NCBI GenBank assembly: GCA_027006055.1
Contig: JALTKX010000061.1
Location: 2,607-66,606, forward strand
DNA length: 64,000 bases
Direction of reading: 5' to 3'
Source of the DNA: Calditrichia bacterium
GTDB lineage: Bacteria > Calditrichota > Calditrichia > Calditrichales > J004
Made by a program: the position numbers and the translations under genes. The first letter of the stretch is position 1; each line of letters opens with the position of its first letter. Under the pieces are notes generated by a model that saw only the letters and a program-made list of their open reading frames with translations, searched no databases and had not been told where the DNA came from. This document shows, in pieces, positions 189 to 64,000 of this stretch.

Positions 189-2531
189 ATGCAGAAAAAT
201 CAAAGATCAAACGCGCCGATGACGACTTCAGACAGTTCGTTTGACATAAAAAAATATATTCGATTGTTTAAACGGAAAAAATGGACGCTTCTTTCGGTTT
301 TTTCCGTCACTTTTATTGTGGTGCTGGCCGCGGCCCTGCATTTTGGCCCCCAGCAACTGTACAGCACCACCGCCTTGTTGCAATTTGATGATAAACGCGC
401 TCTTTCCGGCATGAACGCCCGGGGGCGCCAGGAAAACGACAGCAAGCTGGGCGTGCTGATGAGCCGTTCCTTTTTAAAACGTGTGGTGGCCAATACCGAT
501 TACCAGTTTCAAATTAAGGGTCAGCCCCGTTATTCGGTTATCGATTCCGTGCGCCTGGGTAAAGAGCTGAAGTATGGGAATTACCGGATCGAGAAGCAGG
601 AAAATATTCTTAAACTGTTCTATACCAATCCGCAAAAGACCATCGAAGATAAGGTGGTTCTGGAAACATCCCTACCGGAAAACAATCAGATTTCCTATGG
701 CGGGGCGACGCTCTACATAAAGCCCGGTTACTGGAATACCCATGATGAGCTTGCCTATAAGTTGCTTAAGGAAGCCAAGGCGGTGGAAATATTGAGACTT
801 TCACTTTCGCCTAACTTTAAAAACCGTTTGCGCACACTGATGGAGATTAAGATTACCGGCGCCGATCCCGTTTATATCACGGAAACATTGAATGTGCTGG
901 TGGATCAGTTTGTATTGCAAAATCTGGATTTTAAAAAATACCATACGCGCGAGGTTCTGGGAATTTTAACCACGCAGTTGGAACAGGCCAAGCAGGAACT
1001 GGACGCGGCCACGAACGAGCTGAAGCAGTTCCGGCAAAGGAACCCCTATGTGGGGCTTACCGGAGAAGCCGCGGGAACAGTGACCAATATTTCGGCCATT
1101 GAATCTCAAAAAGTGGATGTACTTAACAAAAAATCGGAACTCCAGGCTCTTATTCAGCGCCTGAACAACTCCCGGGATGACGATAAGTATTCCGTGCTGA
1201 GCGAACTGCTCTCCTGGCTTGCCGCTAACGGGCCGGCCACGGTACCGGCTTTGTCCGCCGAGTTTGCCACCCTGAATGCGGAGCGCGCCCGTCTTGAAAA
1301 CTCCTATGCGCCCGGACATCCGGTTTTGCAGGAGAATAAAAAGAAACTGGACCAACTGGAACAGAAAGTACTGCTGACGGCCGGGAATCTTAGAAAGCAG
1401 TATGACGAGCGTATTGCCGGCATAGACGCCCAGGTGCGCAGCCAGCAGATAAAAATTCAACGCCTGCCCGCCAAGGAACTGGAATATGCCGAGTTGCAAA
1501 GAAAAAGAACCGTGGCCGATCAGGTATACTCTTCCCTGTTGGTGCGCTACAATCAGGCCAAGGTGGCCGACGCCGTTGAAGTGGGCGATATTATTGTGCT
1601 TGACCCCGCCGTTGTGCCGCCCACGGCCGGAAAGCTGGGGCTCTTTTTAAAATATGGCATGATTGCCTTTATCATGGGGCTGGGGCTGAGCGTGGGTTTT
1701 GTTCTGGTCGTAGACTTTTTTGATAAAACCGTGCGCACCACGGATGAACTGGAAAAAGCGGTGCCCATACGCGTGGTGGCCAAAATACCCGTGGTGGGTT
1801 CCGAAAAGGATATCAGCCCGGAACTGTTCGATAAATCCAAAAGGATCGATCCCAAGCTGGTAACCGCGGATTATTCGCCCACGCCCATGGGCGAGGCCTA
1901 TCGCAGTCTGCGTACTCAGCTTTTGTTCAATAACGAGGAAAAGCGCCACCGTTCCCTTTTTGTTACGTCGCTCAACCCCAGTGAAGGTAAGTCCTTAAAT
2001 GCCGGTAACCTGGCCATTACCTTTGCCCAGCAGAAAATCCCCACCCTGTTGGTGGACGCCGATTTGCGGCGCGGGGTTCTGCACAGCTCCTTTGCCTGTA
2101 ATAAAAAACCGGGACTGGCCGATTTTCTGTACAGCAATGCCGATATTACCGATGAAAATATCCGCAAGGTTATTCAACAGACCCATATTCCCAATCTTTA
2201 TCTGATGAGCAGCGGCATGGCCGTTCCCAATCCGTCGGAAATCCTTGGCACGCAGCGCGCGGCCGATGTGTTTAGGTTCATGGGGGAACGTTTCGGCTTT
2301 TTGATTGTGGATACGCCGCCCATCATGGTTACGGCCGATTCGGTTGTGCTTTCCAAGTATGTGGATCAGGGGCTGTTTGTCATCCGCGCGGGTAAGACCA
2401 ATGTGGAAGACGTAAAAGCAAAATTGGCCGAGTATAAGGATTTTCAAAACCATCTGTTTGGCATCATCTTGAATTGTGCCGAACTGGATATGAAAAAAGA
2501 CAACTATAAGTATTCATATTACAACTACTAA
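189..2531 (+). CDS. Polysaccharide co-polymerase fused to bacterial tyrosine autokinase (Wzc/EpsB/GumC type)
   Basis: 780 aa. N-terminal TM helix, long coiled-coil periplasmic region and a second TM. C-terminal P-loop kinase with Walker A 'NPSEGKS', A' 'LLVDADLRRG' and B 'LIVDTPP'. Tyr-rich tail 'DNYKYSYYNY'. Confidence 0.9.
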   Translation: MQKNQRSNAPMTTSDSSFDIKKYIRLFKRKKWTLLSVFSVTFIVVLAAALHFGPQQLYSTTALLQFDDKRALSGMNARGRQENDSKLGVLMSRSFLKRVVANTDYQFQIKGQPRYSVIDSVRLGKELKYGNYRIEKQENILKLFYTNPQKTIEDKVVLETSLPENNQISYGGATLYIKPGYWNTHDELAYKLLKEAKAVEILRLSLSPNFKNRLRTLMEIKITGADPVYITETLNVLVDQFVLQNLDFKKYHTREVLGILTTQLEQAKQELDAATNELKQFRQRNPYVGLTGEAAGTVTNISAIESQKVDVLNKKSELQALIQRLNNSRDDDKYSVLSELLSWLAANGPATVPALSAEFATLNAERARLENSYAPGHPVLQENKKKLDQLEQKVLLTAGNLRKQYDERIAGIDAQVRSQQIKIQRLPAKELEYAELQRKRTVADQVYSSLLVRYNQAKVADAVEVGDIIVLDPAVVPPTAGKLGLFLKYGMIAFIMGLGLSVGFVLVVDFFDKTVRTTDELEKAVPIRVVAKIPVVGSEKDISPELFDKSKRIDPKLVTADYSPTPMGEAYRSLRTQLLFNNEEKRHRSLFVTSLNPSEGKSLNAGNLAITFAQQKIPTLLVDADLRRGVLHSSFACNKKPGLADFLYSNADITDENIRKVIQQTHIPNLYLMSSGMAVPNPSEILGTQRAADVFRFMGERFGFLIVDTPPIMVTADSVVLSKYVDQGLFVIRAGKTNVEDVKAKLAEYKDFQNHLFGIILNCAELDMKKDNYKYSYYNY

Positions 2532-2619: not shown

Positions 2620-4146
2620 ATGCAGCTTTTACACTCATTTCTCGAAAAATCACGGCAGCAATATCCGGAAAAACCGCTTCTTTTTGCCAAAAAATGGTAC
2701 ACCTACCAGGAAGTGGATGACGCGGCCAATGCCCTGGCCAATTATCTTATCGAAAAGGGCGTGCGGCGCGGCGACCGGGTGGCCTTTTTACTGGAAAACG
2801 GTTTTGAGTATGTGGTTACCTATTATGGCGTGTTAAAGGCCGGCGCCGTGGCGGTGGGGCTTAATACCGAGACCACGGCGGAAACTCTGGACTATCTGTT
2901 GCATAATTCCGGCGCGCGGGTCTTTATCTCCGATAAAAACTTTAAGAAACATTTTAAACCCATTGCCGGAAGGCTGAAAAAGCTGCTGGCCTTTGTGCTG
3001 GCCCGTCCCCTTGCCGGTTTTGATTACGCCGATTTATTTTCCGCGATTGTGGAAACCTATCCCCCGGAAAGACCTTCCGTGCGCATGATAAGCATTGACA
3101 CGGCGGCGATTGTATACACTTCCGGCAGCACCGGCAGACCCAAGGGGGTTACCCTGACCCATCTTAATGTGGTGACCAATACCGAGTCGATTGTTGCCTA
3201 TCTCAGGTTGACGGCCGAGGATCGTATGTTGGTGGTATTGCCGTTCTATTACATCTATGGCCTTTCGCTGCTCAATACCCATGTGGCGGTAGGCGGCAGC
3301 CTGGTTGTCGAAAACCGTTTTGCCTTTCCCAATGTGGCCCTGAACAGCATGGAAGAGCACCGGGTAACGGGATTTGCCGGGGTGCCTTCCACCTTTGCCA
3401 TCCTGATGGCCAAAACAAATATCAGGGAAAGACACTTTCCCGCGCTAAGGTATGTCACCCAGGCCGGCGGGGCCATGGCGCCTACCCTGCAAAAGGAGGT
3501 GGCCCGTACCATTGCCCCCGCCCGTTTAATTATTATGTACGGAGCCACCGAGGCCTCGGCGCGTCTTTCCTATCTGGACCCGGAATACCTTGAAAGCAAG
3601 TGGGGCTCCATCGGCAAGGCCATTCCCAACGTGGACCTTTTTGTGGCCGATGAAAAGGGACGGGCCCTGCCGGCCGGCGAGCGTGGGGAAATCGTGGCCC
3701 GCGGCGCCAACATCATGCAGGGCTATTGGCGGGACAAAAAGGAAACCCGCATGGTTTTGCGTGACGGTCTCTATTTTACCGGCGATTTGGGGGTATGCGA
3801 TGAGGATGGTTTCCTGTTTGTGGTCGGTCGCTCCAAGGATATGATCAAGCAGGGAGCAAACCGCATCAGCGCCAAGGAGATCGAAGAAAAAATACTGGAG
3901 CATGAAAACGTGCTTGAAGTAGCCGTCATTGGTCGGCCGGATGATATCCTGGGTGAAGCCATGGATGCCTGCGTGGTGCTAAAGCGCGGTGACGACAACT
4001 GGCAGGAGGAACTGCGCTCTTTTGTGCAGGGCAAGTTGCCGCCCTTTAAGCAACCCAAGTATTACAGTCTGTTTAACAGCCTGCCCAAAAACAGTTCGGG
4101 TAAAATCATGAAAACAAAAATCAAAGAGATGAAAGGCCTGGCCTGA
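2620..4146 (+). CDS. AMP-forming acyl-CoA/acyl-carrier-protein ligase (ANL superfamily)
   Basis: 508 aa. AMP-binding motif 'YTSGSTGRPKGV', 'YGATE', and hinge region 'GDLG..DEDGFLFVVGRSKDMIKQGANRI'. Confidence 0.9.
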   Translation: MQLLHSFLEKSRQQYPEKPLLFAKKWYTYQEVDDAANALANYLIEKGVRRGDRVAFLLENGFEYVVTYYGVLKAGAVAVGLNTETTAETLDYLLHNSGARVFISDKNFKKHFKPIAGRLKKLLAFVLARPLAGFDYADLFSAIVETYPPERPSVRMISIDTAAIVYTSGSTGRPKGVTLTHLNVVTNTESIVAYLRLTAEDRMLVVLPFYYIYGLSLLNTHVAVGGSLVVENRFAFPNVALNSMEEHRVTGFAGVPSTFAILMAKTNIRERHFPALRYVTQAGGAMAPTLQKEVARTIAPARLIIMYGATEASARLSYLDPEYLESKWGSIGKAIPNVDLFVADEKGRALPAGERGEIVARGANIMQGYWRDKKETRMVLRDGLYFTGDLGVCDEDGFLFVVGRSKDMIKQGANRISAKEIEEKILEHENVLEVAVIGRPDDILGEAMDACVVLKRGDDNWQEELRSFVQGKLPPFKQPKYYSLFNSLPKNSSGKIMKTKIKEMKGLA

Positions 4147-4150
4147 GTTT

Positions 4151-5179
4151 ATGCGTATTACCTATTTCACGGATGATTTTGAACGCTGGGACGCCTATGT
4201 GAAGGCTCATGAGGCCGGTACGATCTATCATACTTCCGCCTGGAAGAGCATCATTGAAAGCCATTTTAAAAAAGAAACCTTTTACATTGCGGCGCTGGAG
4301 GGTGACACACTTGCGGGCCTTTTGCCGCTGACGCATTTTAAATCCGCCTTGTTTGGTAATTTTATCGTTTCCGTTCCCTTTGTGAATTACGGCGGAATTC
4401 TGGCCGACGGCATGGAGGCCATGCGGGCCCTTGCCGAGGAGGCGGAAAAAATCCGCGCGCAATGCGGAGCGGATTTTGTGGAACTGCGCGACGCGCGCCC
4501 CCTGGAATGGGAACTGCCGGTTAAAACGCAAAAGGTTACTTTTTACCTGGACCTTCCGCCAACGGAAGAAGAGCTGATGGCCTCCTTTAAGGCCAAGCTG
4601 CGCAGCCAGATACGCCGGCCGATGAAAGAGGGGATAACCGGAGAGGTGGGCGGCCTGGAATTAGTAGACGCCTTTTACGAGGTTTTCTGCCGCAACATGC
4701 GCGATTTGGGAACGCCGGTCTATTCCAAAAAATTTTTTGAAACCATCCTGCGCCAAACGCCGGAAAACAGCCATATTGTGCTGGTAAAATCCAAAGATGG
4801 CCAAACCATCGGCGGCGCCTTTTTGCACGGCTATAAGGAGCGTATGGAAATCCCCTGGGCGTCCACGCTTAGGGAATTCAACCGCTTTAGCCCCAATATG
4901 CTGCTCTATTGGGAAGTGCTGCGCTTTTCCATAGCCCGGGGATATAAACAGTTTGATTTCGGTCGATGCTCGCGGGACAGCGGTACCTACCGCTTTAAAA
5001 AACAGTGGGGCAGCGTGGAGCACCCGCTCTATTGGTATTACCTGTTGCCCGAGGGGGCGGAAATGCCGCAAATCAATCCTGACAATCCCAAATACAGGCT
5101 GGCGATCAGTATGTGGCAAAAAATGCCCCTGGCGCTTACGCGGATGATAGGTCCCCCCATTGTAAAAAATTTACCATAA
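4151..5179 (+). CDS. FemAB-family (GNAT-fold) acyl/aminoacyl transferase, of the type found in PEP-CTERM/exosortase EPS loci
   Basis: 342 aa. The N-terminus 'W..YV.....T.YHTSAWKSIIE' and its length are typical of FemAB-like proteins. It is 4 nt downstream of the ligase. Confidence 0.65.
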   Translation: MRITYFTDDFERWDAYVKAHEAGTIYHTSAWKSIIESHFKKETFYIAALEGDTLAGLLPLTHFKSALFGNFIVSVPFVNYGGILADGMEAMRALAEEAEKIRAQCGADFVELRDARPLEWELPVKTQKVTFYLDLPPTEEELMASFKAKLRSQIRRPMKEGITGEVGGLELVDAFYEVFCRNMRDLGTPVYSKKFFETILRQTPENSHIVLVKSKDGQTIGGAFLHGYKERMEIPWASTLREFNRFSPNMLLYWEVLRFSIARGYKQFDFGRCSRDSGTYRFKKQWGSVEHPLYWYYLLPEGAEMPQINPDNPKYRLAISMWQKMPLALTRMIGPPIVKNLP

Positions 5180-5190
5180 AGCGGAAGAAA

Positions 5191-6372
5191 ATGAAAAAAA
5201 CACCCGCCGTAGTGCTGGGTAACCTGATGATGGGGCGCTGTTTTACACTGGCGGATATTCCCTACATCGGCATCACCACAAAAAATGATAAACGTCTCTT
5301 CTATTCAAAATCATGTATAGAGGGACATGCGCTGGAAAACCCGGCAAAGGATGAAAGGCGCACGGTTGAGGCTTTGCTGGAGATTGGTAAAAGGCATGGC
5401 GGCGGTTTGCCGCTTTTTTATACCAATGACGCCCAGCTTAAAATGGTCAATAACCATGCGCAGGAACTAAAGGAGTACTTTACCTTCCTTTTGCCGGAAA
5501 AAAGAGTGCTCGATTCCAGCCTGGATAAGCACCTGTTTAACGACATGGTTAAGGAGTACGACCTGCCCGTGCCGCCTACGTTCCATAAGGATGAGGTGAC
5601 GGATGCCGGGACGCTGGACTACCCGGTGATCATTAAACCCACAAGCCGCATTCACTGGTTCAACTCACGGGTTATACGGGAGTTGGGCGCGCAGCAAAAA
5701 ATTCTGTTGGTTAACAATGCCGGGGAGTTTGACGCCTATCGCCGGAAAATTGACAGCGAGGACATTGACTATATTGTGCAAAAATATGTGCCCGGCACGG
5801 AAGCGCAAATTCTCAGCTTCCATGCTTTTTTTGACGATAAGGCGCGGCCGCTGGCTTACTATTGCGGACGCAAAATACGCACCTATCCCAATGATTACGG
5901 CCTGAGCTGTTCGCTGACGTTGATAAAACATCCTGAGATGGCCCGGATGAGCCTGGATGTTTTAAGCCGGTTAAATTTTAAGGGGCCGATAAAAATTGAC
6001 TACAAACTGGATGAAGCCAGCGGCAGGCTCTATTTGCTGGAGCTAAACCCGCGCTACAATATGTGGCACTACATCGGCGCCCGGGCGGGCATAAACCTGC
6101 CCGCGCTGGCTTACAGCCATCTTACCGGCGGCGAAAGCGGAGACGTTAAAACCGAATACGAAACGGACATCACCTGGATCAGCGGTTTTCAGGAATTGCT
6201 TACATTCCGTGATATGAAAAAACGGGGCCTGATCACCACGGGAGAGTGGCTGGCTTCCCTTTCGGGAAAACGCATCTATCAAACCTTCGCCCCCGATGAT
6301 CTGAAGCCGGTCGTTTACGCGGCCATTGATACCTTTAAGGGCGGTTTAAGAAAAATAAAAAAACTGTTCTGA
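5191..6372 (+). CDS. ATP-grasp domain protein (carboxylate-amine ligase type)
   Basis: I chose the ATG at 5191 (MKKTPAVVLGN...) over the ORF-track start at 5113, which overlaps the upstream gene. ATP-grasp signatures: 'YPVIIKPT', 'IVQKYVPG', 'LLELNPR'. Confidence 0.65.
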   Translation: MKKTPAVVLGNLMMGRCFTLADIPYIGITTKNDKRLFYSKSCIEGHALENPAKDERRTVEALLEIGKRHGGGLPLFYTNDAQLKMVNNHAQELKEYFTFLLPEKRVLDSSLDKHLFNDMVKEYDLPVPPTFHKDEVTDAGTLDYPVIIKPTSRIHWFNSRVIRELGAQQKILLVNNAGEFDAYRRKIDSEDIDYIVQKYVPGTEAQILSFHAFFDDKARPLAYYCGRKIRTYPNDYGLSCSLTLIKHPEMARMSLDVLSRLNFKGPIKIDYKLDEASGRLYLLELNPRYNMWHYIGARAGINLPALAYSHLTGGESGDVKTEYETDITWISGFQELLTFRDMKKRGLITTGEWLASLSGKRIYQTFAPDDLKPVVYAAIDTFKGGLRKIKKLF

Positions 6373-7193
6373 TGCGACGCCTTATTTTTTCCGATCTGCA
6401 CGCCAACATTTTTGCCTTTAAAAAAATGCTCCGCCTAGTGGAGGCGCTAAAGGCGGAGGCCCTGTTCTCCCTGGGAGATGTGATCGGTTATAACAGCTAT
6501 CCCGGTGAGTGCCTGGCCCTGATGCGGGAAAACGAAATCCCTTCGCTGACGGGCAATCACGAAGCCATGATCGTGGAGGAGTTGACGCCGGAGAGCTGCA
6601 AAAGCGAGCGCGGACAAAACGCCGTGCGCGTGAGCCGCGAACTTTTAAGCGTGGAAGAAAGGGAAGAAATCCGCCGTTGGCCCCTTAGGTGGGAGTTTAA
6701 TGAAACCTGCCTGGCCTGGCATGCCGCTTTCGATTCGCTGTACCGCACGGTAAATACGGTGGAACGGGCCCGTCCTCAGTTTGAAGAGCTTAGCCGATTA
6801 CAAAAGGATATCTGCTTTTTCGGCCATACCCACCGTCCCGGTCTTTTTATTCAAAACAAGCAGACCGGCGGCGTGGAATATGACGTCACTTTACAAAAAA
6901 GGGCTTTAACGGAAGAAAACCGTTATTTGATTAATCCGGGAACCCTGGGCGAACCGCGCCACGGCCTGCCCATGAGTTTTGTGATGTTTGACGATCGGGC
7001 AATGACCGTTGAGTACCATGTGCTGACTTTGAGTGAAGAAGAAAAACGACAATTAAGAAAAAATAACAGGGATGTTTTTGGTGTTACCAGCCTGTCGCGC
7101 TTACCAAAACAGATCCGGGAGAAGGGACGCCGTTGGTATTACCGTTTGGGCGGGATTAAAGACGCCCTGGCCGGCGCTCCCTCAAAAAGATAA
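6372..7193 (+). CDS. Calcineurin-like metallophosphoesterase
   Basis: 273 aa. Motifs 'SDLHAN', 'GDVIGY', 'GNHE' and 'GHTH'. The start overlaps the upstream stop (TGATG). Confidence 0.8.
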   Translation: MRRLIFSDLHANIFAFKKMLRLVEALKAEALFSLGDVIGYNSYPGECLALMRENEIPSLTGNHEAMIVEELTPESCKSERGQNAVRVSRELLSVEEREEIRRWPLRWEFNETCLAWHAAFDSLYRTVNTVERARPQFEELSRLQKDICFFGHTHRPGLFIQNKQTGGVEYDVTLQKRALTEENRYLINPGTLGEPRHGLPMSFVMFDDRAMTVEYHVLTLSEEEKRQLRKNNRDVFGVTSLSRLPKQIREKGRRWYYRLGGIKDALAGAPSKR

Positions 7194-7214
7194 TAAATCG
7201 GGATTTTGGGCTAC

Positions 7215-8369
7215 ATGATTCTTGAAATGGTTTTCTGGTTTTTGCTGTTCCTGCTGGTTTATATCTACGCGGGCTATCCCGTGCTTTCCATGGTGTTGGC
7301 TAAAATGTTCCCCTCGCGGGAAGCGGCCCCTCCACGGGAATGGCCTTCGCTGACCATGGTTATCTCCGCCTATAATGAGGAAACGGTAATCGCTGAAAAG
7401 CTAAATAACTCCCTTCAACTGGACTATCCCCGGGATCGGTTCCGGATCGTGGTTATTTCCGACGCTTCGGAAGACAAAACCGATGACATCGTAAACAGTC
7501 ATGACGACGGCCGCGTGCGCTTGATCCGCGTGGAAGGGCGCCGGGGTAAAACCCACGGTATTTCGGTTGTGGTGCCGGAGTTGAAAAGCGAACTGGTGGT
7601 TTTTTCCGATGCCAACGCTATTTATAAAAAGGACGCCCTCAAAAAGCTGGTGGCTCATTTTGCCGATGAAAAGGTCGGTTATGTGGTGGGCAACGCGCAA
7701 TATTATAAGGAAAATCAATCCAGCGCCGGCGAGCATGAAAGCACCTATTGGGATATGGAGGTAAAGTTAAAGATGTATGAGTCGCGTCTCAGTTCCGTGG
7801 TGGGGGGCGACGGCGCCATCTATGCCATCCGTACTTCTTTGTTTCTGCCCATGGAGGATGACGATATCAACGATTTTGTCAACCCCCTGCAGATCATTGC
7901 CCAGGGCTATCGCGGCGTGTTTGAGGCGGACGCGGTATGCTATGAACACACGGCGGACAGTTTTGAAAAAGAGATCGGCCGCAAGAGGCGCATTGTGAAC
8001 CGTAGCTGGCGGGGCCTGATGAAGAACAAGAGCGTATTAAACCCCTTTAAAACGGGTTTCCATGCCTTTCAGGTCTTTTCGCACAAAATGCTGCGCTGGC
8101 TTGGCGGAGTTTTTCTGTTGGCCTTTTTTATCGTCAACATTTTTTTATGGCGGGAGCATTGGATATATCAGCTTTCCCTGGCGGCCCAGATTCTGTTTTT
8201 TCTGCTGGCCCTTACCGGGCGCGCTTTGGTGCGCCGCAAAGGTTCCGCGCCCTTTCTGTTTTCCACGCCCTATTATTTTATGGCGGTAAACATCGCCTCG
8301 ATAATGGGTATTATCGATAACTATCTGGGCCGGAAATATACCACCTGGCAAACGATCCGTGAAGCGTAA
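7215..8369 (+). CDS. Membrane-embedded family-2 glycosyltransferase (synthase-like: N-terminal TM, GT2 core, C-terminal TM bundle)
   Basis: I preferred the ATG at 7215 over the TTG at 7206. Motifs 'VISAYNEE', 'VISDASEDKT' and 'FSDAN'. C-terminal hydrophobic helices. The 'NRSWRG' segment sits where processive GT2s carry Q/RxxRW. Confidence 0.8.
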   Translation: MILEMVFWFLLFLLVYIYAGYPVLSMVLAKMFPSREAAPPREWPSLTMVISAYNEETVIAEKLNNSLQLDYPRDRFRIVVISDASEDKTDDIVNSHDDGRVRLIRVEGRRGKTHGISVVVPELKSELVVFSDANAIYKKDALKKLVAHFADEKVGYVVGNAQYYKENQSSAGEHESTYWDMEVKLKMYESRLSSVVGGDGAIYAIRTSLFLPMEDDDINDFVNPLQIIAQGYRGVFEADAVCYEHTADSFEKEIGRKRRIVNRSWRGLMKNKSVLNPFKTGFHAFQVFSHKMLRWLGGVFLLAFFIVNIFLWREHWIYQLSLAAQILFFLLALTGRALVRRKGSAPFLFSTPYYFMAVNIASIMGIIDNYLGRKYTTWQTIREA

Positions 8370-8385
8370 GTAAACGAGGAAATGT

Positions 8386-9453
8386 ATGGGATATACTGTA
8401 AAGGAAGCAGACCTGCAAAAAGAGCGGCATATCATGGTTGCCATTCTGGAGAACAACCGCAATGTGCCGGGTTTTGATTTTAACAAACGTTTTGAATGGA
8501 TCTACCTGAATAATCCGACCGGCCGGGCCCGGGCCTGGATTATCTGGGATGACAGCCACAATGTTCCCGTGGGCTTTACCGGTGTTTTTCCGCGTAAAAT
8601 GTATGTGGAAGGGCGGGAATATACGGCCTGGAACTGTGGAGATTTTTCCATCGAGAAAAAATACCGGACGCTGGGGGTGGCCGTAAAGCTGCGCAAGGCG
8701 GCCCGCGAAGCGGTTAATAATGACGAAGTGCCTTTTTTATATGCCCATCCCAATGAGCGCATGGAACTGATCCATCTGCGTTCGGGGCATAAAAAAATAG
8801 CCCTTATGAAGCGGTATGCCCTGCCTTTTCGCGTAAACCGCGTTCTGCAAAATTATCTGAAAAGCGAGTTGCTGGCCCGCATGGTGGCCAAGCCGATAAA
8901 CTTTGTTCTGTCGCTCAAATACCGCTTTTCCACCTTTTTAGGCCTGTCCGGCAGCTTACATGACCGGGTTCAGGTGGATGAGCGTCATGCCTATCTTTTT
9001 GAATACATGAAAAAGAAGTTCCGGGTAATCGGCGACAGAAGCATTGAATTTATTAACTGGAAGTTTGGCGCCAATCCCAACCGGCATTATGAACAGTTTG
9101 ACATGTATTATAAAAATAATCTGGTGGGCACGGTTTTTTTCACCCGTAAAAATGATGTAATTCACATAATAGATATTTTGATTGACGATTTTGACCGCTT
9201 TGCCGGTCAGTTGTTTCGCATGTTTATCAACGCCATCCGTCCGGCTTACAGGCGGCGTATTGTTTCGCTTTCCTTTATCATGCAGGAATTCAATCCCTTT
9301 ATTCCCGTTTTGGAGAAGCTGGGCTTTAAGTTCCGGGATGACGCGACCTCGGCGGTGATATGCTACACCTCCGGCGAAAAACACCCCGAGTTGGAATCCG
9401 TGCTGTATGAAGGCCGCCATTGGTTTATGACGGTTGGCGACCGTGACGCCTGA
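8386..9453 (+). CDS. GNAT-family acyltransferase (two-lobed)
   Basis: 355 aa. Acetyl-CoA-binding-type motif 'YRTLGVAVKLRKAA'. RBS 'gagga' 6 nt upstream. Confidence 0.55.
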   Translation: MGYTVKEADLQKERHIMVAILENNRNVPGFDFNKRFEWIYLNNPTGRARAWIIWDDSHNVPVGFTGVFPRKMYVEGREYTAWNCGDFSIEKKYRTLGVAVKLRKAAREAVNNDEVPFLYAHPNERMELIHLRSGHKKIALMKRYALPFRVNRVLQNYLKSELLARMVAKPINFVLSLKYRFSTFLGLSGSLHDRVQVDERHAYLFEYMKKKFRVIGDRSIEFINWKFGANPNRHYEQFDMYYKNNLVGTVFFTRKNDVIHIIDILIDDFDRFAGQLFRMFINAIRPAYRRRIVSLSFIMQEFNPFIPVLEKLGFKFRDDATSAVICYTSGEKHPELESVLYEGRHWFMTVGDRDA

Positions 9454-9496
9454 TGAAAAAGATTAATGTAACCCTATCTGTTTTAAGGAGTGAACG

Positions 9497-9733
9497 ATGA
9501 AAGAGAAGATTCTTGAGTTTTTATATGATGAGAGCCTGAAAGATGAATTTGCAGACCTGGATCATGACGATTCCCTGCTGGAACTGGGTATCATAGATTC
9601 CGTGAAAATGATGGAAATGATATCCTTTCTGGAAGAAAATTTTGGCATAGAGGTGGATGACGAGGAGCTGATGCCCGAAAACTTTGATTCCCTCAATGCC
9701 ATTGTCGCCTTTATCGAATCCAAAAAAGGCTGA
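9497..9733 (+). CDS. Acyl carrier protein (stand-alone, D-alanyl/aminoacyl-carrier-like)
   Basis: 78 aa and acidic. Phosphopantetheine attachment-type motif 'LGIIDSVKMMEMISFLE'. RBS 'aaggag' upstream. Confidence 0.8.
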   Translation: MKEKILEFLYDESLKDEFADLDHDDSLLELGIIDSVKMMEMISFLEENFGIEVDDEELMPENFDSLNAIVAFIESKKG

Positions 9734-9734
9734 C

Positions 9735-10940
9735 ATGAAAAATATCCGCCTGCCCTGGGGCGCCTGGTACGGTGACGAGGAGCGCTCTTTTGAGTTGCCG
9801 GAATCCTGGGATGTATCCCTGTTTGAACTGGATGCGCGACGCCGTGTCGGCGAGCAAAGGATCGCCGAGGTGCTGGAGGCCCTTTCCCGTGATATCCGGG
9901 CTAAAAAGCCCTCAAGCGCCATAATCGTGGTGGACGACCTGACCCGGCCGGTGCAGCTGGAAGAGCTGCTGCCTAAGATTGTATCGCGGCTGACGGCCGC
10001 CGCCGTGGCCGAAAAGGATATCCGGGTACTGATCGGCCTGGGCTCGCACGCGCCCCTCTCCGATGGCGATTTGCGTAAAAAGCTGGGCTCACACATTGTT
10101 GACCGCCTGCAATGCATCAATCACAATCCCCGTGAGACGGAAGCCATTGGCATGGAATGGGGAAAAACGGAGATACGCCTGAATCGCCACTATCTGGCGG
10201 CGGACTACAAAATTGTGATCAGCGGATTAACGCCGCACAGCTTTGCCGGTTTTAGCGGCGGGGCCAAGATGCTGGTGCCCGGCATTGCCGATATGGAAAC
10301 CCTGTCCAAAACCCATAAATCCGTGCTGATGGGTTTTATGGGCAAACTGGGAACGGTGGAACAGAATAAGTTCCGCGATACCATAGAAAGCTTTGTGGAG
10401 CGGGCCGGACTGGATTTCTTTTTCGGTCTGGTTATCAATCCCGATCGTTCCATACGCGAGCTTTACGGCGGCCATTTTGTGGAAGCCCATCGCGCCGCCT
10501 CGGCCGAAGCGGCCCGTTTTTGCACCCTTCAGGCGGAGGGCCCCTACGATCTGGTGATCTCCTCGGCCTATCCCAAGGATACGGAATTGTTACAGGCGGA
10601 AAATGCCATGATTCCCCTTAAATCCAAAAAAGAAGGCCTGCTAAGGGAGGGCGGCACGCTGGTGCTGATGTCCGCCTGCAGTCAGGGCGTTGGCCATCAC
10701 GGTTTGTTTGGCGAAGGGGGCAAACTGTACCGGAAACCGCGTCCCCTGCGTTTGCTTAAGCCCTATAATGTGGCCTTTTATGTGGAGAATGTGGATAAAT
10801 CCGGCTTCGCCACTGTTTTTAATGAAGAGTATTTTTTTACGGATCAATGGTCGTCCCTGCTGCGGCATATAGCGCCGCAACTGCCGCCCTCGCCGCGCGT
10901 GGCCGTTTTTCCCTATGGCAGCATGCAACTGGTAGGATAA
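9735..10940 (+). CDS. LarA-family (nickel-pincer-dependent lactate/2-hydroxyacid racemase-like, DUF2088) protein
   Basis: I chose the ATG at 9735, 1 nt after the ACP stop. The track start at 9684 overlaps the ACP. Motifs 'VVDDLTRP', 'GLGSHAP' and 'GLTPHSFAGFSGGAKMLVPG' match LarA N-terminal/catalytic-region patterns as I recall them. Confidence 0.7.
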   Translation: MKNIRLPWGAWYGDEERSFELPESWDVSLFELDARRRVGEQRIAEVLEALSRDIRAKKPSSAIIVVDDLTRPVQLEELLPKIVSRLTAAAVAEKDIRVLIGLGSHAPLSDGDLRKKLGSHIVDRLQCINHNPRETEAIGMEWGKTEIRLNRHYLAADYKIVISGLTPHSFAGFSGGAKMLVPGIADMETLSKTHKSVLMGFMGKLGTVEQNKFRDTIESFVERAGLDFFFGLVINPDRSIRELYGGHFVEAHRAASAEAARFCTLQAEGPYDLVISSAYPKDTELLQAENAMIPLKSKKEGLLREGGTLVLMSACSQGVGHHGLFGEGGKLYRKPRPLRLLKPYNVAFYVENVDKSGFATVFNEEYFFTDQWSSLLRHIAPQLPPSPRVAVFPYGSMQLVG

Positions 10941-10941: not shown

Positions 10942-12249
10942 ATGTCACCCACAACCCTGATATTCCTGGTGCTCTATTTTTCCGGCATCGTCCTGACCCT
11001 AAAAAAACCGCACTGGGGCGTGGCTCTGTATATTTTTGAATGGCACAACCATCCCCCCTATATGTGGTGGGGCAAGGACCTGCCTGATCTGCGCTGGTCC
11101 CTGCTGGTGTCCGTGGTAACCCTGATCAGCCTGATCATTAACCATCAGAAGATGAAAAAGCTGAAGGACCCCAGCTATAACCTGATCTGGTGGCTGGTGG
11201 GCATGACCCTGTGGATGTATTTTGTAAGCACCTTTGTGGCCATCGTGCCCAAGGACAGTTACAAAAGGGCCGAAAACTTTATGAAAATGACGGTGCAGAT
11301 ATTTTTGATGATGTATCTGATCCGCGATACAAAACAAATGCACCAGGTACTTTGGACCCTGATACTCAGCGTGGCCAACTTCGGGCGCATCGCTTATCAG
11401 CGGGGAGGAAACCGCTACCTGGGGGTGATTGCCCCCAATGCCACGGAGGAAAACGCCATCAGCGCTCACGTGGCCGCCGTAATGCCTTTTTTCGGGCTCT
11501 ATTTTTTAACGGGAAAACGCTGGGAAAAAATCGTCACCTTCCTCTCCATACCCTTTCTGATCAATTTAATAATTCTGGCCAATTCCCGGGCCTCCTTTCT
11601 GGCGGTACTGGTCATCGGCGTTTTAAGTTTCATCTGGATAAAGGGGCGTCTGCGCTGGTATGTTTTGCTGGGAATCCTTGGCGGCGTGCTGCTTGTTTTT
11701 ATGCTGGCCAACGATCAGTTTTGGGAGCGGCAAAACACGATGAAAAACTATCAGGAGGAAGGCTCCGCCGTTAGCCGCATCTATTTGTGGAACGGCGCCA
11801 TCGAAATGTGGAAGGATCATCCCCTGGGGCTTGGCGGCGAAGGCTTTGAGGAACTGGTGATCGACTATGTGCCCGAGCTGGCGGCCAAAATGCAGGAAGA
11901 CGGCGCTAAAACGGTGCACTCCACCTTCTTTCTGATTCTGGTGGAGTGGGGGCCGATAGGTCTGATCATGTTTTTCGGATTTACCATTCATACCCTGATG
12001 ATACTGGGCCGGGTGCGAAAGCGATCCAAATTTACGCCGGGTTACAGATATTATGTGGACGCCATGGCCATACAGATGGGCGTTATTGCCCTGTTTGTGG
12101 CCGGACTGACACACAACCGCCTGTACGCGGAGGTTTATTACTGGTTTGGGGCGTTTGCCGTGGTTTTACGTAATCTGCAAATTACGGAAATGGCCGAGGA
12201 AAAAGAAGCGCTTGAGGAACTGAGGGATGTGGCGGGGGAAGAGGTTTAA
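10942..12249 (+). CDS. O-antigen ligase/polymerase-like (Wzy-type) integral membrane protein
   Basis: 435 aa with about 10-12 hydrophobic helices. There is a large loop after 'ANSRASFLAVLV', as in Wzy_C-type proteins. Confidence 0.7.
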   Translation: MSPTTLIFLVLYFSGIVLTLKKPHWGVALYIFEWHNHPPYMWWGKDLPDLRWSLLVSVVTLISLIINHQKMKKLKDPSYNLIWWLVGMTLWMYFVSTFVAIVPKDSYKRAENFMKMTVQIFLMMYLIRDTKQMHQVLWTLILSVANFGRIAYQRGGNRYLGVIAPNATEENAISAHVAAVMPFFGLYFLTGKRWEKIVTFLSIPFLINLIILANSRASFLAVLVIGVLSFIWIKGRLRWYVLLGILGGVLLVFMLANDQFWERQNTMKNYQEEGSAVSRIYLWNGAIEMWKDHPLGLGGEGFEELVIDYVPELAAKMQEDGAKTVHSTFFLILVEWGPIGLIMFFGFTIHTLMILGRVRKRSKFTPGYRYYVDAMAIQMGVIALFVAGLTHNRLYAEVYYWFGAFAVVLRNLQITEMAEEKEALEELRDVAGEEV

Positions 12250-12300: not shown

Positions 12301-13656
12301 ATGAAAAAAATACTGTTTTTAACGTCCAATTTCCCACCGGGAAGAACGGTGGGTACACAACGCGTAACCAAGATATTGAAATACATGGACGATTCCGAGT
12401 TTGAATTTCATGTACTTACCCTGGAAGAAGCGTTTTACGGCGACCGCTACGATAAAAATAAGCCGCTGGAGCAACGCATTCCGGATTCCGTTAGGGTGTA
12501 TCGTACCCCTTTCCGTGATTTGACCAGTGGCTTTACCTATGTGAAATCGCTTATAAGCGGCAAAAAAAAGCCGCCGGCCGTCAACGGGAAAAAAGAGAAC
12601 GGCGCTAAAAAAATTGTGCCCGCGCCGGAGGTAAAACGCTCCCTGCTTTCCCAACTGGCCCATAAAGGAAGGGATTTCTTTTTTTCCATACTGGAATTTC
12701 CCGATAAATACATCGGCTGGTACAGGGACGCCGTCAGGGAAGGGGTGCGTATTGTCAAGGAACAGAATATAGATATTATACTGACCACGGCCCCGCCGCA
12801 TTCCCTGTTTGTGATGGCCACGCGCATAAAAAAACTAACCGGCGTAAAGCTGGTATTGGACTACCGCGATCCCTGGGCCCTTTCCCGCTGGGATAAGGGC
12901 AGCAGAATAAAAACGGCCAGCGAAAGCTATCTGGAAAAAAAGGCCATTAAAGCCGCCGATGCCGCTCTGTTTGTAACCGATAAACTGCAAAAGGAGTATG
13001 CCCGTCACTACAAACAATACAATCCCGGTAAATTTCACGTTTTTTATAACGGTTATGACGCCGATGATTTTGTGGGCAAGCAACATAAGCCCTCGCCGCC
13101 GCCGTTGCGTTTTATTCATTTGGGAACACTGTATAAAAAACGTAACCCGGAAAAACTGTTTGAAGCGGTAAAAGAACTGAAGGATGAAGGGCTGATCTCC
13201 GCGGATCAGGTACGTTTTGAGTTTATTGGTTACGTGGCCCGGGAATTGAATTTTCTTTTTGAAAAATTAAAAGAATACGGTCTGGAAGACCTTATTGAAT
13301 TTAAAGCCAATATCGACTTTGACAGCAGCCTGACCACCATGTACGAGGCTTCGGTATTGATTATCGTGCAACCCTTTACGGATTTGCAGGTACCGGCCAA
13401 GCTGCTGGAATATATGTATACGGAACGCCCCATCTTGGCCCTGTGCGAACCGGGAAGCGCCACGGCGGAAGTTATAGAAAAGGGCTCGCTGGGCCTGGTG
13501 GCCGCCTCGCAGGATGTGGCGGAGATTCGCAAGGCGGTTCTGACGATGATGGAACATCTCGGAGAACCCCGGTTTCAGCCGGACGTCGATTATATCCGCT
13601 CTTTTAACATGAAAAACTATATCAAAAAACTTGAAAATATATTCCGGAGTCTTTAA
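12301..13656 (+). CDS. GT-B glycosyltransferase (GT4-like)
   Basis: 451 aa. N-terminus 'KILFLTSNFPP'. C-terminal nucleotide-sugar-binding-type region 'PAKLLEYMYTERPILAL'. Confidence 0.7.
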   Translation: MKKILFLTSNFPPGRTVGTQRVTKILKYMDDSEFEFHVLTLEEAFYGDRYDKNKPLEQRIPDSVRVYRTPFRDLTSGFTYVKSLISGKKKPPAVNGKKENGAKKIVPAPEVKRSLLSQLAHKGRDFFFSILEFPDKYIGWYRDAVREGVRIVKEQNIDIILTTAPPHSLFVMATRIKKLTGVKLVLDYRDPWALSRWDKGSRIKTASESYLEKKAIKAADAALFVTDKLQKEYARHYKQYNPGKFHVFYNGYDADDFVGKQHKPSPPPLRFIHLGTLYKKRNPEKLFEAVKELKDEGLISADQVRFEFIGYVARELNFLFEKLKEYGLEDLIEFKANIDFDSSLTTMYEASVLIIVQPFTDLQVPAKLLEYMYTERPILALCEPGSATAEVIEKGSLGLVAASQDVAEIRKAVLTMMEHLGEPRFQPDVDYIRSFNMKNYIKKLENIFRSL

Positions 13657-14789
13657 TGCCTGAGCCCATAAAAGTTGCCCATTTGATCAACCATCTGTCG
13701 CCGGCGGGCAAGGAGATGGGCATTGTAAAGCTCCTGAACCGCATGGACCCCCAAAGATTTAAGGGCTATCTGGTTGTTTTTGATAAGGTATGGGATACCC
13801 TGGCCCTGGATGTGGAAAAATCCGAACTGATTGCCATAAACAAAAAAAAGGGCAACGACCCCATTTTACCCTTTAAAGTGGCAAAAATATTGCGCTCGCG
13901 TAAAATCGATATTTTACATACCCATGCCTGGGGGACGTTGGTGGAGGGTATTTTGGGCGCCAAGCTGGCCCGCACTCCGGTGGTTATCCACGGAGAGCAC
14001 GGCACATTTCATAAAACCGGAAAACGTAAAAAAGTACAAAATCTTTTTTGGCGCTGGGCGGATCATCGCCTGTCGGTTTCCGGGATACTGGCGCGGAATC
14101 TGGAAAAAACGATTGAGCTTCCCGAAAATTCGTTTGATACTATCCTGAACGGGGTCGATACGGAGAAATTCCGTCCCGATGCCGGGGACCGGGAGGCCGT
14201 GCGCGCGGAATTGGGTATTTCCGCCGATACCGTGCTTATCGGAACCGTCGGCCGGACGATTAAGGTAAAAAATCATCCCCTGATGATCGAGGCCGCTCAT
14301 TTTTTAAAAGACAAGGGGCTGCCCTTTAAAATGGTCATCGTGGGCGATTCTCCCTTTTACAGCATCCGCGAGGAGATGGAAGAGAAGATCAAAAAGTACA
14401 GGCTAAGCGATTCCATAGAATTTCTGGGCAATCGCAGCGACGTCTCCCGCGTGATGAATGCCTTTGACATTTTCGTGCTGCCTTCCCTAAGCGAGGGCTG
14501 CTCCAATGTAATTCAGGAGGCCATGGCCACGGGACTGCCGGTAATTGCCACCAATGTGGGGGGCAACCCGGAGTTGGTAACCAACAACAAAACGGGATTT
14601 TTATTTACCTCGGAGGACGCCGCCGATTTTGCCGATAAAATGGAAAGGCTGCTTTTGGACGCTGAACTGCGCCGGCAGTTCGGCCGGGCTTCCAGACAGG
14701 ATGCGCTGCAACGCTTTTCCCTTAATGTTATGGTTAAAGCCTATGAGGATTATTATTTAAGGGCACTGGCGGAGAAAAATGGCCGATAA
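13656..14789 (+). CDS. Family-4 glycosyltransferase
   Basis: 377 aa. 'PSLSEGCSNVIQEAMATGLPVIATNVGGNPELV' is the classic GT4 EX7E region. The start overlaps the upstream stop. Confidence 0.85.
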   Translation: MPEPIKVAHLINHLSPAGKEMGIVKLLNRMDPQRFKGYLVVFDKVWDTLALDVEKSELIAINKKKGNDPILPFKVAKILRSRKIDILHTHAWGTLVEGILGAKLARTPVVIHGEHGTFHKTGKRKKVQNLFWRWADHRLSVSGILARNLEKTIELPENSFDTILNGVDTEKFRPDAGDREAVRAELGISADTVLIGTVGRTIKVKNHPLMIEAAHFLKDKGLPFKMVIVGDSPFYSIREEMEEKIKKYRLSDSIEFLGNRSDVSRVMNAFDIFVLPSLSEGCSNVIQEAMATGLPVIATNVGGNPELVTNNKTGFLFTSEDAADFADKMERLLLDAELRRQFGRASRQDALQRFSLNVMVKAYEDYYLRALAEKNGR

Positions 14790-16272
14790 AGAACAAAGCC
14801 TTACGGCTACCGCCCGGCAGGGGGTAATATGGACCATTCTGCGCTCCCTCAGCAGTCAGGGCGCCCGTTTTCTGGCCTCGATTGTACTGGCCCGTATTCT
14901 GTTCCCGGAAGATTTTGGGATTATGGGCATCGTGTTGATCGTAACCCGCTTTGCCACCCGTTTGGGCAGTTTCGGCTTTACCCAGGTGCTGGTGCAAAAA
15001 AAGCTGATAGACGAAAGCCATATCCGCACCACTTTTACCGTAAACCTGATTATCGCCTCGTTGACGACAACCGTGCTCTATCTGTTCGCTCCACATATTG
15101 CCGCGTTCATAATCAGCGAAAACGACATGCAGCGGCTGCCCCTGGTGGTCAATGTTCTGCGGGTGCTTTCGGTTAACTTTATTCTGATTGCCTTTTACAC
15201 CGTACCCAACTCCCTGTTGAAAAGAAAGCTGAAATTCAAGCAGGAATCGATCATCGGTATTTTTGCCGGCGTAACAAAATTCCTTTCACCCATTGTGTTT
15301 GCCCTGCTGGGCTTTGGGGTATGGAGTCTGGTGTTTGGGGCCATCCTCGGTGAATTGATGTATGTGGTCGCCTTTTATCTTTCCACAAAGTGGGTGCCGC
15401 GCTTCGGCATGAACCGCCAGGCCTTGCGCCACATTTTTTCCTTTGGCATGTGGATGAATTTTTACAGCTATATACAATATTTTTATAAAAATATCGACTA
15501 CTTTTTAATCAGTAAATTTTTAGGTTTGGGTTTGCTGGGCAACTATGAGCGGGCCTATAACCTGATGAACACCCCGCGCAAGCGGGTGGGCGATATGATT
15601 AACGGCATCCTGTTTGCCAGCTACTCTAAAATACAGGATGAAGACGAGCGCATGAATAATGCCATGCGCAAGGTGATGGGCACGGTGGCCCTGATCATCT
15701 TCCCGGCCATGACCTGGTTGTATTTCGCCGCGCCCTCGCTGATCCCCCTGGTTTACGGCAATAAATGGGGACTGGTGGTGGAACCCCTGCAAATCATGTC
15801 CATCAGCGGTCTTATCGAGTCGGTTACCATGGTTTTTTATCCCGCCTTTATCGCCAAGGGGTTGGTTAAAAACCGCACGCGCGTGCATTTTATCGTTTTT
15901 CTTTTTCTGGGCTCCGCCTTATACTTTACCGCGCAGATCAGCATTGTTATGGTGGCCTGGACGATAGTGGGCGCTTCCACGCTGGGCTTTTTGCTCAACT
16001 CGGCGGAATATATCCGCAACACCGGCTGGCGCTGGCGCGATACCTTTGCCAGCATACGCCCGGCGGCCATTATCATGGCCCTGATGATTCCGGCTCTTTA
16101 CGGCGTGCAATATGTCGCGGGTATGTGGTTTGCCAACGATTCGCTGCCCATGTTCATCTTTTTGTGTAGCGGCGCTGCCCTTGTTTTTTTCGGAAGTAAT
16201 TTTTTGTTCAGCTTTGCCGAAGTAAAGGAAATACTCGCCCTGGCCAGGGGCAAAAAGCCTAAAAAAGCATAA
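14779..16272 (+). CDS. MOP-superfamily polysaccharide flippase (Wzx), copy 1
   Basis: 497 aa and polytopic. N-terminus 'GVIWTILRSLSSQGARFLASIVLARILFPEDFG' is typical of Wzx/PST proteins. Confidence 0.8.
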   Translation: MADKEQSLTATARQGVIWTILRSLSSQGARFLASIVLARILFPEDFGIMGIVLIVTRFATRLGSFGFTQVLVQKKLIDESHIRTTFTVNLIIASLTTTVLYLFAPHIAAFIISENDMQRLPLVVNVLRVLSVNFILIAFYTVPNSLLKRKLKFKQESIIGIFAGVTKFLSPIVFALLGFGVWSLVFGAILGELMYVVAFYLSTKWVPRFGMNRQALRHIFSFGMWMNFYSYIQYFYKNIDYFLISKFLGLGLLGNYERAYNLMNTPRKRVGDMINGILFASYSKIQDEDERMNNAMRKVMGTVALIIFPAMTWLYFAAPSLIPLVYGNKWGLVVEPLQIMSISGLIESVTMVFYPAFIAKGLVKNRTRVHFIVFLFLGSALYFTAQISIVMVAWTIVGASTLGFLLNSAEYIRNTGWRWRDTFASIRPAAIIMALMIPALYGVQYVAGMWFANDSLPMFIFLCSGAALVFFGSNFLFSFAEVKEILALARGKKPKKA

Positions 16273-16281
16273 GGATGTGCT

Positions 16282-17304: not shown

Positions 17305-17312
17305 CAGCATAT

Positions 17313-18326: not shown

Positions 18327-18328
18327 CC

Positions 18329-20632: not shown

Positions 20633-20653
20633 TATGAAAGACAGGGAACGATA

Positions 20654-32648: not shown

Positions 32649-32661
32649 AAAGAAGGTGATT

Positions 32662-33534: not shown

Positions 33535-33571
33535 TATTTCGTCTTTATTTTTCTGGCTGCTGACGGGAGTT

Positions 33572-49374: not shown

Positions 49375-49400
49375 ACATTTTATGACAATATCCATTTCAG

Positions 49401-49434
49401 ACCACTTCCTTTTTTAAGGAAGTGGTTTTTTTTT
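49401..49434 (+). terminator. Rho-independent terminator
   Basis: Perfect 9-bp stem accacttcc/ggaagtggt with an 8-nt loop, followed by a T-run through 49434. It begins 27 nt after the stop at 49374. Confidence 0.8.
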
Positions 49435-50663: not shown

Positions 50664-50674
50664 CCGGGGAACGA

Positions 50675-53135: not shown

Positions 53136-53139
53136 AATC

Positions 53140-61270: not shown

Positions 61271-64000
<2,730 letters not shown>

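Follow-up and report, generated by a model that had tools for sequence, protein, structure and literature searches.

The 64,000-nt stretch of a Calditrichia contig analysed here (the window) contains a single long array of + strand genes, running from 189 to 58198. The array encodes enzymes of surface-glycan assembly, together with a FemAB-family transferase and a CE4 polysaccharide deacetylase whose family models are named after the exosortase XrtA, three large secreted proteins with C-terminal domains (CTDs) of the kind used in type IX secretion (T9SS), and an outer-membrane barrel of the PorV/PorQ family (Table 1). A preliminary description of this DNA had proposed that the glycan-decoration chemistry known from accessory genes of XrtA and its PEP-CTERM substrates may be coupled here to a different protein-sorting system. 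The flanks were read on scaffold_266 of ERZ23495147 (85,384 bp), where the window occupies 6861–70860; positions 1–78085 (~78 kb) of this contig were covered. The genes rplM, rpsI, rpsB, tsf, pyrH and frr lie 5' of the window and are followed by Bac_transf, STAS and Poly_export genes, and PPDK-like genes, GDH, glycerate kinase, Cpn10 and an M14 peptidase lie 3' of it. As relatives, we used the best 80 loci from a profile scan of the GTDB species genomes with a FemAB alignment; sampled loci carry L numbers where they need to be told apart. The FemAB protein of the window was 96% identical to a protein of a Calditrichia metagenome-assembled genome (MAG) and 63–80% identical to proteins labelled Calditrichaeota or Caldithrix, which places the DNA in Calditrichota, a phylum of the FCB group.

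The FemAB protein aligned with TIGR03019 over nearly its whole length (residues 12–342 on model positions 2–330 of 330), and its sole PDB relative by sequence was FemX (6snr). Both this protein and the deacetylase scored above the curated cutoffs of their models. The deacetylase begins with the N-terminus that had been pointed out earlier, MKNIISVDVEEWFH, and matched PF01522 (75 bits) and PF11959 (147 bits). The AMP-forming ligase was also present; it aligned along the full TIGR03098 model, with a score of 364.4 bits against a cutoff of 592.35, and its top match was the generic fatty-acid ligase model PRK06187 (415.5, cutoff 476). The curated TIGR03098 cutoff misses the XrtA-linked ligases that we sampled as well (L031, L025 and L039; 377–415 bits), and it therefore does not separate the window ligase from ligases of real XrtA loci. 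The Wzy_C protein was below the TIGR03097 cutoff (151.5 versus 188.1 bits). Thus, judged by TIGRFAM scores, the FemAB protein and the deacetylase of the proposed three-protein XrtA signature held, and the ligase did not.

The three secreted proteins and the barrel named in the preliminary description were all recovered. The secreted proteins have signal peptides and CTDs of ~85 residues that can be aligned with one another. The CTDs of the 736-aa protein and the FG-GAP protein open with an NPFN-type motif, and all three CTDs end in a hydrophobic K-x-x-[LV]-[LI]-[RK] tail. The CTD of the Big_9 adhesin was sub-threshold on both the type A and the type B models, and it aligned with the other two. 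TIGR04183 domains had been reported earlier in Calditrichaeota (PMC5317091), which was the only mention that we found in the literature on Calditrichota with exosortases or T9SS. The barrel passed NF033709 and failed the equivalog models of PorQ (113.5 bits, cutoff 220) and PorV (54.5 bits, cutoff 250). Its homologues of ~410 aa (≥39% identity) with an organism name all came from Calditrichota. The barrel gene overlaps the start of the Big_9 adhesin gene by 14 nt. A barrel gene directly 5' of, and overlapping, the gene of a large CTD repeat adhesin resembles the cognate barrel/cargo pairs of T9SS (PorQ–PorZ, and PorP/SprF-like barrels with type B cargo such as SprB); unlike in those pairs, the Calditrichota barrel does not reach the equivalog cutoffs of PorQ, PorV or PorP, and the CTD of its partner stays under the thresholds of the type A and type B models.

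No gene of the window matched any Pfam or NCBIfam exosortase model. A local hidden Markov model (HMM) of exosortases was made from 23 sequences of fetched proteobacterial and Auribacterota loci. The exosortase references were verified (L010, TIGR03109, 332 bits against a cutoff of 208; L037, TIGR02602, 155 against 105), and the real XrtA references were drawn from clusters 14 and 37. At E values of up to 10, this HMM matched nothing in the window, in the contig flanks (L001 and L002) or in L087–L089. A regular expression for PEP-CTERM tails (PEP motif, transmembrane (TM) helix and basic tail) detected none in the window or flanks and found the positive controls in L030 and L049. Both absences claimed earlier for the window were borne out, and neither an exosortase nor a PEP-CTERM protein lay just outside it, on contig positions 1–78085. 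Exosortase, EpsI, PEP-CTERM tails, the TIGR03016 outer-membrane protein and the PEP-type export protein were missing from the 78 kb of contig and from all 13 other Calditrichota FemAB loci, and homologues of AsnB-type TIGR03108, TIGR03016 and TIGR03027 were absent from the protein clusters of the window. Other XrtA-associated models matched window proteins below their cutoffs: TIGR03007 (110 bits, cutoff 279) and TIGR03018 (125, cutoff 231), both on the Wzc-like protein, TIGR03088 (270, cutoff 409) and TIGR04063 (163, cutoff 442). The polytopic proteins of the window are the Wzy_C protein, two MOP flippases, a PMT_2-type GT-C and a UbiA prenyltransferase. The product of 33572–34909 (445 aa, no family match) was rejected as a hidden exosortase, since it has no TM segments. 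Polytopic genes just 3' of FemAB in Nitrospira, Geobacter/Geomonas and Pleionea were likewise rejected as exosortases; they encode GT2, Wzy-like and flippase proteins.

The locus was kept in other Calditrichota in two parts. Its head, which extends from Bac_transf to a flippase and includes the AMP-ligase, FemAB, GT2, 355-aa GNAT, acyl carrier protein (ACP), LarA and Wzy genes, was syntenic in at least six other Calditrichota contigs (L003–L006, L008 and L009, with FemAB identities of 63–80%). Its tail runs in the order flippase, GGR, FG-GAP CTD protein, GGR, radical SAM (rSAM)/SPASM protein, barrel, Big_9 CTD protein, AraC regulator, deacetylase and response regulator. This order was kept at ~60% identity in two further Calditrichota genomes, L087 and L088, and the orthologues of the FG-GAP and Big_9 adhesins in both retain their CTDs. 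In a 4.73-Mb contig (ERZ26052130:ctg19883c), the head lies at 2.137–2.158 Mb and the tail at 2.181–2.202 Mb; because the two are on the same contig, ~50 kb apart, head and tail belong to one locus in this relative too. The deacetylase gene directly follows Bac_transf, 4–7 kb from FemAB, in L011, L013, L021, L022 and L028, and this proximity in other Calditrichota supports the action of FemAB and deacetylase in one pathway. Two strong terminator-like + strand hairpins, each followed by a T run, were found at 49399–49428 (13-bp stem), directly 3' of the FG-GAP gene, and at 58208–58228 (9-bp stem). They possibly bracket a putative tail unit consisting of GGR, barrel, adhesin, AraC, deacetylase and response regulator genes, and the first of them suggests that the tail has its own transcript. 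Some Calditrichota loci contain a second FemAB-family paralogue (L011, 9956–12192; L021, 9953–10999 and 14997–16121). These second copies formed a distant branch of the FemAB tree, and two paralogues may correspond to two successive aminoacyl additions.

According to the TIGR03019 family description, exosortase/PEP-CTERM determinants are found in the same exopolysaccharide (EPS) locus in 'nearly every case'. The window gene does lie in an EPS locus, and exosortase and PEP-CTERM determinants were seen neither there nor in the contig and the 13 other Calditrichota loci. Of the 80 best FemAB loci, 24 had an exosortase, as detected by the local HMM, no more than 10 kb away from FemAB, and 56 had none in that range. 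The 24 loci were all among the 67 from outside Calditrichota (0/13 in Calditrichota), and except for one Nitrospirae and one Auribacterota locus they came from Proteobacteria or Desulfobacterota-type organisms. The loci that lacked one in this range also included those of the Nitrospira clade, of KSB3 and of a Cytophagia MAG. In this Bacteroidota MAG (CAYWGH010000001.1, L042, 9078–11029), adjacent deacetylase and FemAB genes pass TIGR03006 and TIGR03019 (378 and 395 bits, respectively). Geobacter has one FemAB locus with an exosortase within 10 kb and another (L060) without. The earlier statement that the ligase, FemAB protein and deacetylase together are the signature of XrtA loci was too strong, and the FemAB and deacetylase genes as a pair do not reliably mark an XrtA neighbourhood. 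The TIGR03019 and TIGR03006 memberships are genuine, and a local exosortase link exists only in a minority of the nearest relatives. Pipeline names such as 'XrtA/PEP-CTERM system-associated' are thus unreliable indicators of an exosortase system.

A second group of enzymes follows in the head. The GNAT named earlier was borderline by sequence (Table 1), and its fold was recovered by modelling: an AlphaFold2 (AF2) model built with an alignment of 35 homologues was confident (pLDDT 94.2, pTM 0.91), and Foldseek against the PDB returned 2ozg (E 3e-15) and N-myristoyltransferases (~1e-13). By its predicted structure, the 355-aa protein is a tandem GNAT with an Eis/N-myristoyltransferase-like fold. 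The possibility that it is a FemAB paralogue was rejected (hhalign probability ~1%), and a PDB sequence search was uninformative for it and for the ATP-grasp protein. Its homologues are mostly unnamed or 'hypothetical' in the databases, with a few labelled 'GNAT family N-acetyltransferase'. The tandem-GNAT gene always adjoins the ACP gene, and two gammaproteobacterial loci that contain XrtA (L031 and L039) have it as well. The stand-alone ACP, listed correctly in the preliminary description, gave weak sub-cutoff matches to AmcB, DltC and OlsHI-type ACPs. One nucleotide after the ACP gene, inside the EPS locus, starts a LarA-type gene, a homologue of the nickel-pincer cofactor racemase; LarB, LarC and LarE cofactor genes were not seen in the window. 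The product of this open reading frame, which was listed as 9684–10940, had been called Wzy-like; it is instead a LarA/Lar_N protein with no TM segments, and the actual Wzy_C gene is the next one. The ATP-grasp ligase was confirmed by a weak match only, and the list given earlier had left out the metallophosphoesterase and GT2 genes, which lie between the listed ones. Because the ATP-grasp and metallophosphoesterase genes are absent from the 4.73-Mb relative (L089), they are accessory. The GT2 gene comes after FemAB in many phyla, and its cluster (cluster 4) was found in 38 loci.

Veith et al. (2020; PMC7468200) showed that in Porphyromonas gingivalis and in Tannerella forsythia a peptide bond joins T9SS cargo to a linking sugar, a 2-N-seryl- or 2-N-glycyl-3-N-acetyl (gluc/mann)uronic acid or amide, which ties the cargo to anionic lipopolysaccharide (A-LPS). 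The CE4 deacetylase VimE was proposed to remove the 2-N-acetyl group, and cross-species complementation showed that VimA sets which amino acid is added (PMC7468200). The same authors noted that VimA matches TIGR03019 (a CDD match) and that VimA/VimE homologues adjoin exosortases in Nitrosomonas, Nitrosococcus and Desulfovibrio, and they speculated that CTERM-sorting systems employ the same sugar (PMC7468200). The proposal that one glycan chemistry serves different sorting systems had therefore already been published from the other direction; in its favour, three Calditrichota genomes keep T9SS cargo and barrel in synteny with the deacetylase.

The Calditrichota locus resembles the Wbp/Vim pathway in combining a CE4 deacetylase and a FemAB/GNAT-type transferase with glycosyltransferases, a Wzy-type glycan pathway and T9SS-CTD surface proteins, and in having a barrel of the PorV/PorQ family, members of which take part in cargo handling. 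It differs in several respects. Its enzymes are full members of the XrtA-named families rather than distant matches; the phylum is Calditrichota, not Bacteroidota; cargo, dedicated barrel and deacetylase are syntenic; a ligase/ACP/tandem-GNAT/LarA cassette is added; and covalent cargo attachment is only putative here. With the XrtA/PEP-CTERM EPS loci (Haft et al., 2006; PMC1569441) it shares a FemAB protein and a deacetylase above the cutoffs and an ACP that accompanies the ligase, and XrtA-associated models (TIGR03098, TIGR03097, TIGR03088 and others) rank at or near the top among the matches of its ligase, Wzy-like protein, GT4s and Wzc, below the cutoffs. In contrast to those loci, the window contains no exosortase, EpsI, PEP-CTERM protein, TIGR03016 outer-membrane protein, TIGR03027 export protein or TIGR03108 amidotransferase, and the sorted proteins of the locus use T9SS tails. 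What the Calditrichota locus newly adds is a third phylum, where T9SS cargo and a barrel of the PorV/PorQ type lie in synteny with full members of the XrtA-named families and no exosortase was seen.

We think it somewhat probable that the window represents a surface-glycan locus conserved in Calditrichota, in which a Vim-like enzyme pair and T9SS adhesins contribute to one surface matrix. The locus would span ~65 kb, most of it within the window. Glycan assembly would be of the Wzx/Wzy type, with Bac_transf as the initiator, GT4 and GT2 glycosyltransferases, MOP flippases, Wzy_C, and Wzc with Poly_export. By analogy with VimE and VimA of P. gingivalis, the TIGR03006 deacetylase would strip the N-acetyl group from an amino sugar, and the TIGR03019 FemAB protein would then add an amino acid to the freed amine. 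The cassette of AMP-ligase, ACP, tandem GNAT and LarA-like protein probably loads the ACP with an activated acid, either carboxylic or 2-hydroxy, and passes this on to a glycan amine. The CTD-bearing proteins of the locus are predicted to be sorted by T9SS, one of them paired with its own PorV/PorQ-family barrel, and the adhesins most likely make up a single surface matrix together with the glycan. More specific proposals are less secure. That the aminoacyl sugar serves as the covalent acceptor for T9SS cargo via a PorU-type sortase, as in P. gingivalis A-LPS, is a plausible but rather doubtful extension of the analogy. It is rather unlikely that the Calditrichota FemAB and CE4 enzymes constitute an exosortase-A-type linking-sugar module that supplies the covalent acceptor for T9SS matrix adhesins, acting as an adaptor portable between exosortase and T9SS, with the XrtA-associated families misnamed.

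Several observations weigh against a shared matrix built with a Vim-like pair. The absence of a local exosortase says little, because Geobacter has both kinds of FemAB locus, and the negative results for exosortase and PEP-CTERM cover the locus, contig positions 1–78085 and the other Calditrichota loci sampled. No PorU, PorZ or translocon genes were found in the window, where the PorU and PorZ models matched CTD regions only. UDP-GlcNAc dehydrogenase, DegT aminotransferase and AsnB-type amidotransferase, the counterparts of WbpA/B/E/D and WbpS, by which the di-N-acetyl uronic acid is made, were also missing from the window proteins. The hairpin at 49399–49428 points to separate transcription of head and tail. 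A non-covalent hold by its own barrel, in the manner of PorQ–PorZ or SprF–SprB, may anchor the third adhesin instead of the glycan, and the tandem GNAT could cap the amine needed by a sortase.

The strongest alternative is distinctly possible without being probable: the enzyme pair and the cassette would only decorate an EPS or O-antigen, adding N-aminoacyl or N-acyl groups, and the T9SS adhesins would be matrix components that share the location or regulation of the glycan genes and have no covalent link to the glycan, at least one of them being anchored by its barrel. VimA/VimE homologues do occur in O-antigen clusters of the exosortase-free bacteria Pseudomonas, Aeromonas and Vibrio (PMC7468200), and 56 of the 80 FemAB loci have no sorting enzyme nearby. 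The 14-nt overlap of barrel and adhesin genes, as in cognate anchor pairs of Bacteroidota, and a GNAT that could cap the amine would fit as well. However, the deacetylase stays beside the barrel and the CTD adhesin in relatives at ~60% identity, and the sole experimentally defined role of the enzyme pair is the making of a protein-linking sugar (PMC7468200).

It appears improbable that this is an ordinary XrtA/PEP-CTERM system with exosortase and substrate genes at other sites of the genome, the T9SS proteins of the locus having nothing to do with the glycan chemistry. A neighbour-joining tree placed the Calditrichota FemABs in one clade, which included one XrtA-linked gammaproteobacterial sequence (L010) and was sister to an XrtA-linked gammaproteobacterial group. 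This phylogeny speaks for such a system, as do the passing of XrtA-named equivalog models by both enzymes, the sub-cutoff XrtA-associated matches of the Wzy-like protein, GT4s, Wzc and ligase, and a Geobacter FemAB (L060) lying more than 10 kb from any exosortase. On the other hand, the XrtA markers that cluster tightly with FemAB in proteobacterial loci were seen in none of the 13 Calditrichota loci nor in the 78 kb of contig, and the Bacteroidota MAG has the same pair with no exosortase within 10 kb. Chance juxtaposition, by which three T9SS tails in 64 kb would be meaningless, is very improbable: TIGR04183 proteins are numerous in FCB-group genomes (PMC5317091) and, of the three tails, two do no better than the model cutoff or fall under it, but two adhesins, barrel and deacetylase hold their order, and the adhesins their CTDs, in two genomes at ~60% identity, and the other Calditrichota loci (~275 kb, all except L087 and L088) contained only one further CTD protein.

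What the PEP-CTERM substrates of exosortases become attached to has been a question since 2006. To our knowledge, the FemAB/deacetylase pair has been solved in one case only, that of P. gingivalis and its T9SS linking sugar. In Calditrichota, true TIGR03019 and TIGR03006 members are syntenic with T9SS cargo, apparently with no exosortase, and this links the two systems; a de-N-acetylated, aminoacylated sugar would thereby gain support as a general handle for C-terminal protein sorting. If the covalent proposal is true, glycan-anchored T9SS cargo would exist outside Bacteroidota. A cultured host, Caldithrix abyssi, exists, which makes the idea testable by mass spectrometry.

Table 1. Features of the glycan and adhesin locus, with positions in the window and supporting model matches.
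Feature	Position	Strand	Evidence and remarks
Wzc-like chain-length determinant/tyrosine autokinase	189–2531	+	TIGR01007, 153 bits (cutoff 108); comes after Bac_transf, STAS and Poly_export
AMP-forming acyl ligase, ligase_PEP_1-like	2620–4146	+	PF00501, 288 bits
FemAB-family transferase, TIGR03019 member	4151–5179	+	TIGR03019, 401.4 bits (cutoff 260.35)
ATP-grasp ligase, weak match	5191–6372	+	PF15632, 37.6 bits; start from contig gene call (also listed from 5113); variable member
Metallophosphoesterase	6372–7193	+	PF12850, 55 bits; variable cassette member
Membrane GT2 glycosyltransferase	7215–8369	+	PF00535, 75 bits
Predicted tandem-GNAT N-acyltransferase, 355 aa	8386–9453	+	PF00583, 22.1 bits (cutoff 20.7, borderline); AF2 model
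Stand-alone acyl/peptidyl carrier protein	9497–9733	+	PF00550, 34.6 bits
LarA-type (Lar_N) putative 2-hydroxyacid racemase/epimerase	9735–10940	+	PF09861, 134 bits; NF052593, 208 bits (below cutoff 500); 0 TM segments
Wzy_C/O-antigen-ligase-family polytopic protein with DUF5935, PEP_O_lig_1-like	10942–12249	+	PF04932, 78 bits; ~8 TM segments
Glycan assembly block: GT4, stp2-like GT4, MOP flippase, second CE4 deacetylase (340 aa), APH-like kinase, heparinase II/III-like protein, two further GT4	12301–22917	+	
Secreted 736-aa protein, T9SS type A CTD	35945–38155	+	TIGR04183, 32.4 bits (cutoff 23); signal peptide; CTD starts NYPNPFN and ends KLTFLR
Secreted FG-GAP/VCBS-repeat protein, T9SS-type CTD	47080–49374	+	FG-GAP_3, 108 bits; FlgD_ig, 32.9 bits (cutoff 27); TIGR04183, 22.9 bits (cutoff 23, borderline)
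PorV/PorQ-family outer-membrane barrel	51903–53135	+	NF033709, 153.4 bits (cutoff 90)
Secreted Big_9/cadherin-like/FN3 adhesin, T9SS-type CTD	53122–55983	+	Big_9, 142 bits; TIGR04183, 16.6 bits (below cutoff 23); CHU_C, 20.5 bits (below cutoff 27)
AraC-family regulator	56075–56800	+	PF12833, 49.5 bits; position kept in L087 and L088
CE4 polysaccharide deacetylase with DUF3473, TIGR03006 member	56805–57629	+	TIGR03006, 338.5 bits (cutoff 276.2)
Single-domain response regulator with C-terminal hydrophobic tail	57725–58198	+	PF00072, 112 bits; last gene of the + array

Among the other genes of the window, a prenyl-lipid module lies inside the glycan locus, at 31041–35952, 38168–39103, 45835–47064 and 49470–51769. 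Its products are a PMT_2/ArnT-like GT-C, a polyprenyl synthase, a prenyltransferase of the UbiA type, a protein weakly resembling CrtC hydratase, two enzymes of the geranylgeranyl reductase (GGR) family and the rSAM/SPASM protein. The GGR protein at 45835–47064 passed TIGR02032 (192 bits, cutoff 159), and its paralogue at 49470–50663 was assigned by Pfam GGR_cat alone. In L087 and L088, the genes for GGR and rSAM proteins hold their positions. This suggests that a saturated polyprenyl carrier or lipid anchor is made specifically for the glycan of the locus.

Three PPDK_N-domain proteins are encoded at 39110–41617, 58241–61225 (− strand) and 62679–64000 (− strand). A PEP-utilizer mobile domain is also present in the first, which is similar to enzymes of the PigC/RedH/rifampicin-phosphotransferase type; the last is fused to a nucleotidyltransferase domain and extends past the window end. 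An Rfam scan of the window identified no RNA family. The response regulator ends in a TM-like hydrophobic tail (…IWALLISIPIWLILGIILASLL), which is unusual for a receiver-only protein, and its place 3' of the deacetylase is kept in L087 and L088.

Two heparinase II/III-like proteins were also identified. The one at 23035–25545 has a signal peptide, a faint HepII_C match and no T9SS tail. The one at 18329–20632 is a cytoplasmic-looking form that also occurs in FemAB loci of several phyla. The block of 340-aa deacetylase, APH-like kinase, heparinase and GT4 genes to which it belongs is present in L013, L015 and L042 as well; in the last, the Cytophagia MAG, the FemAB/deacetylase pair is followed by GT2, second deacetylase, APH-like kinase and heparinase-like genes, as in the block at 16282–21724 of the window.

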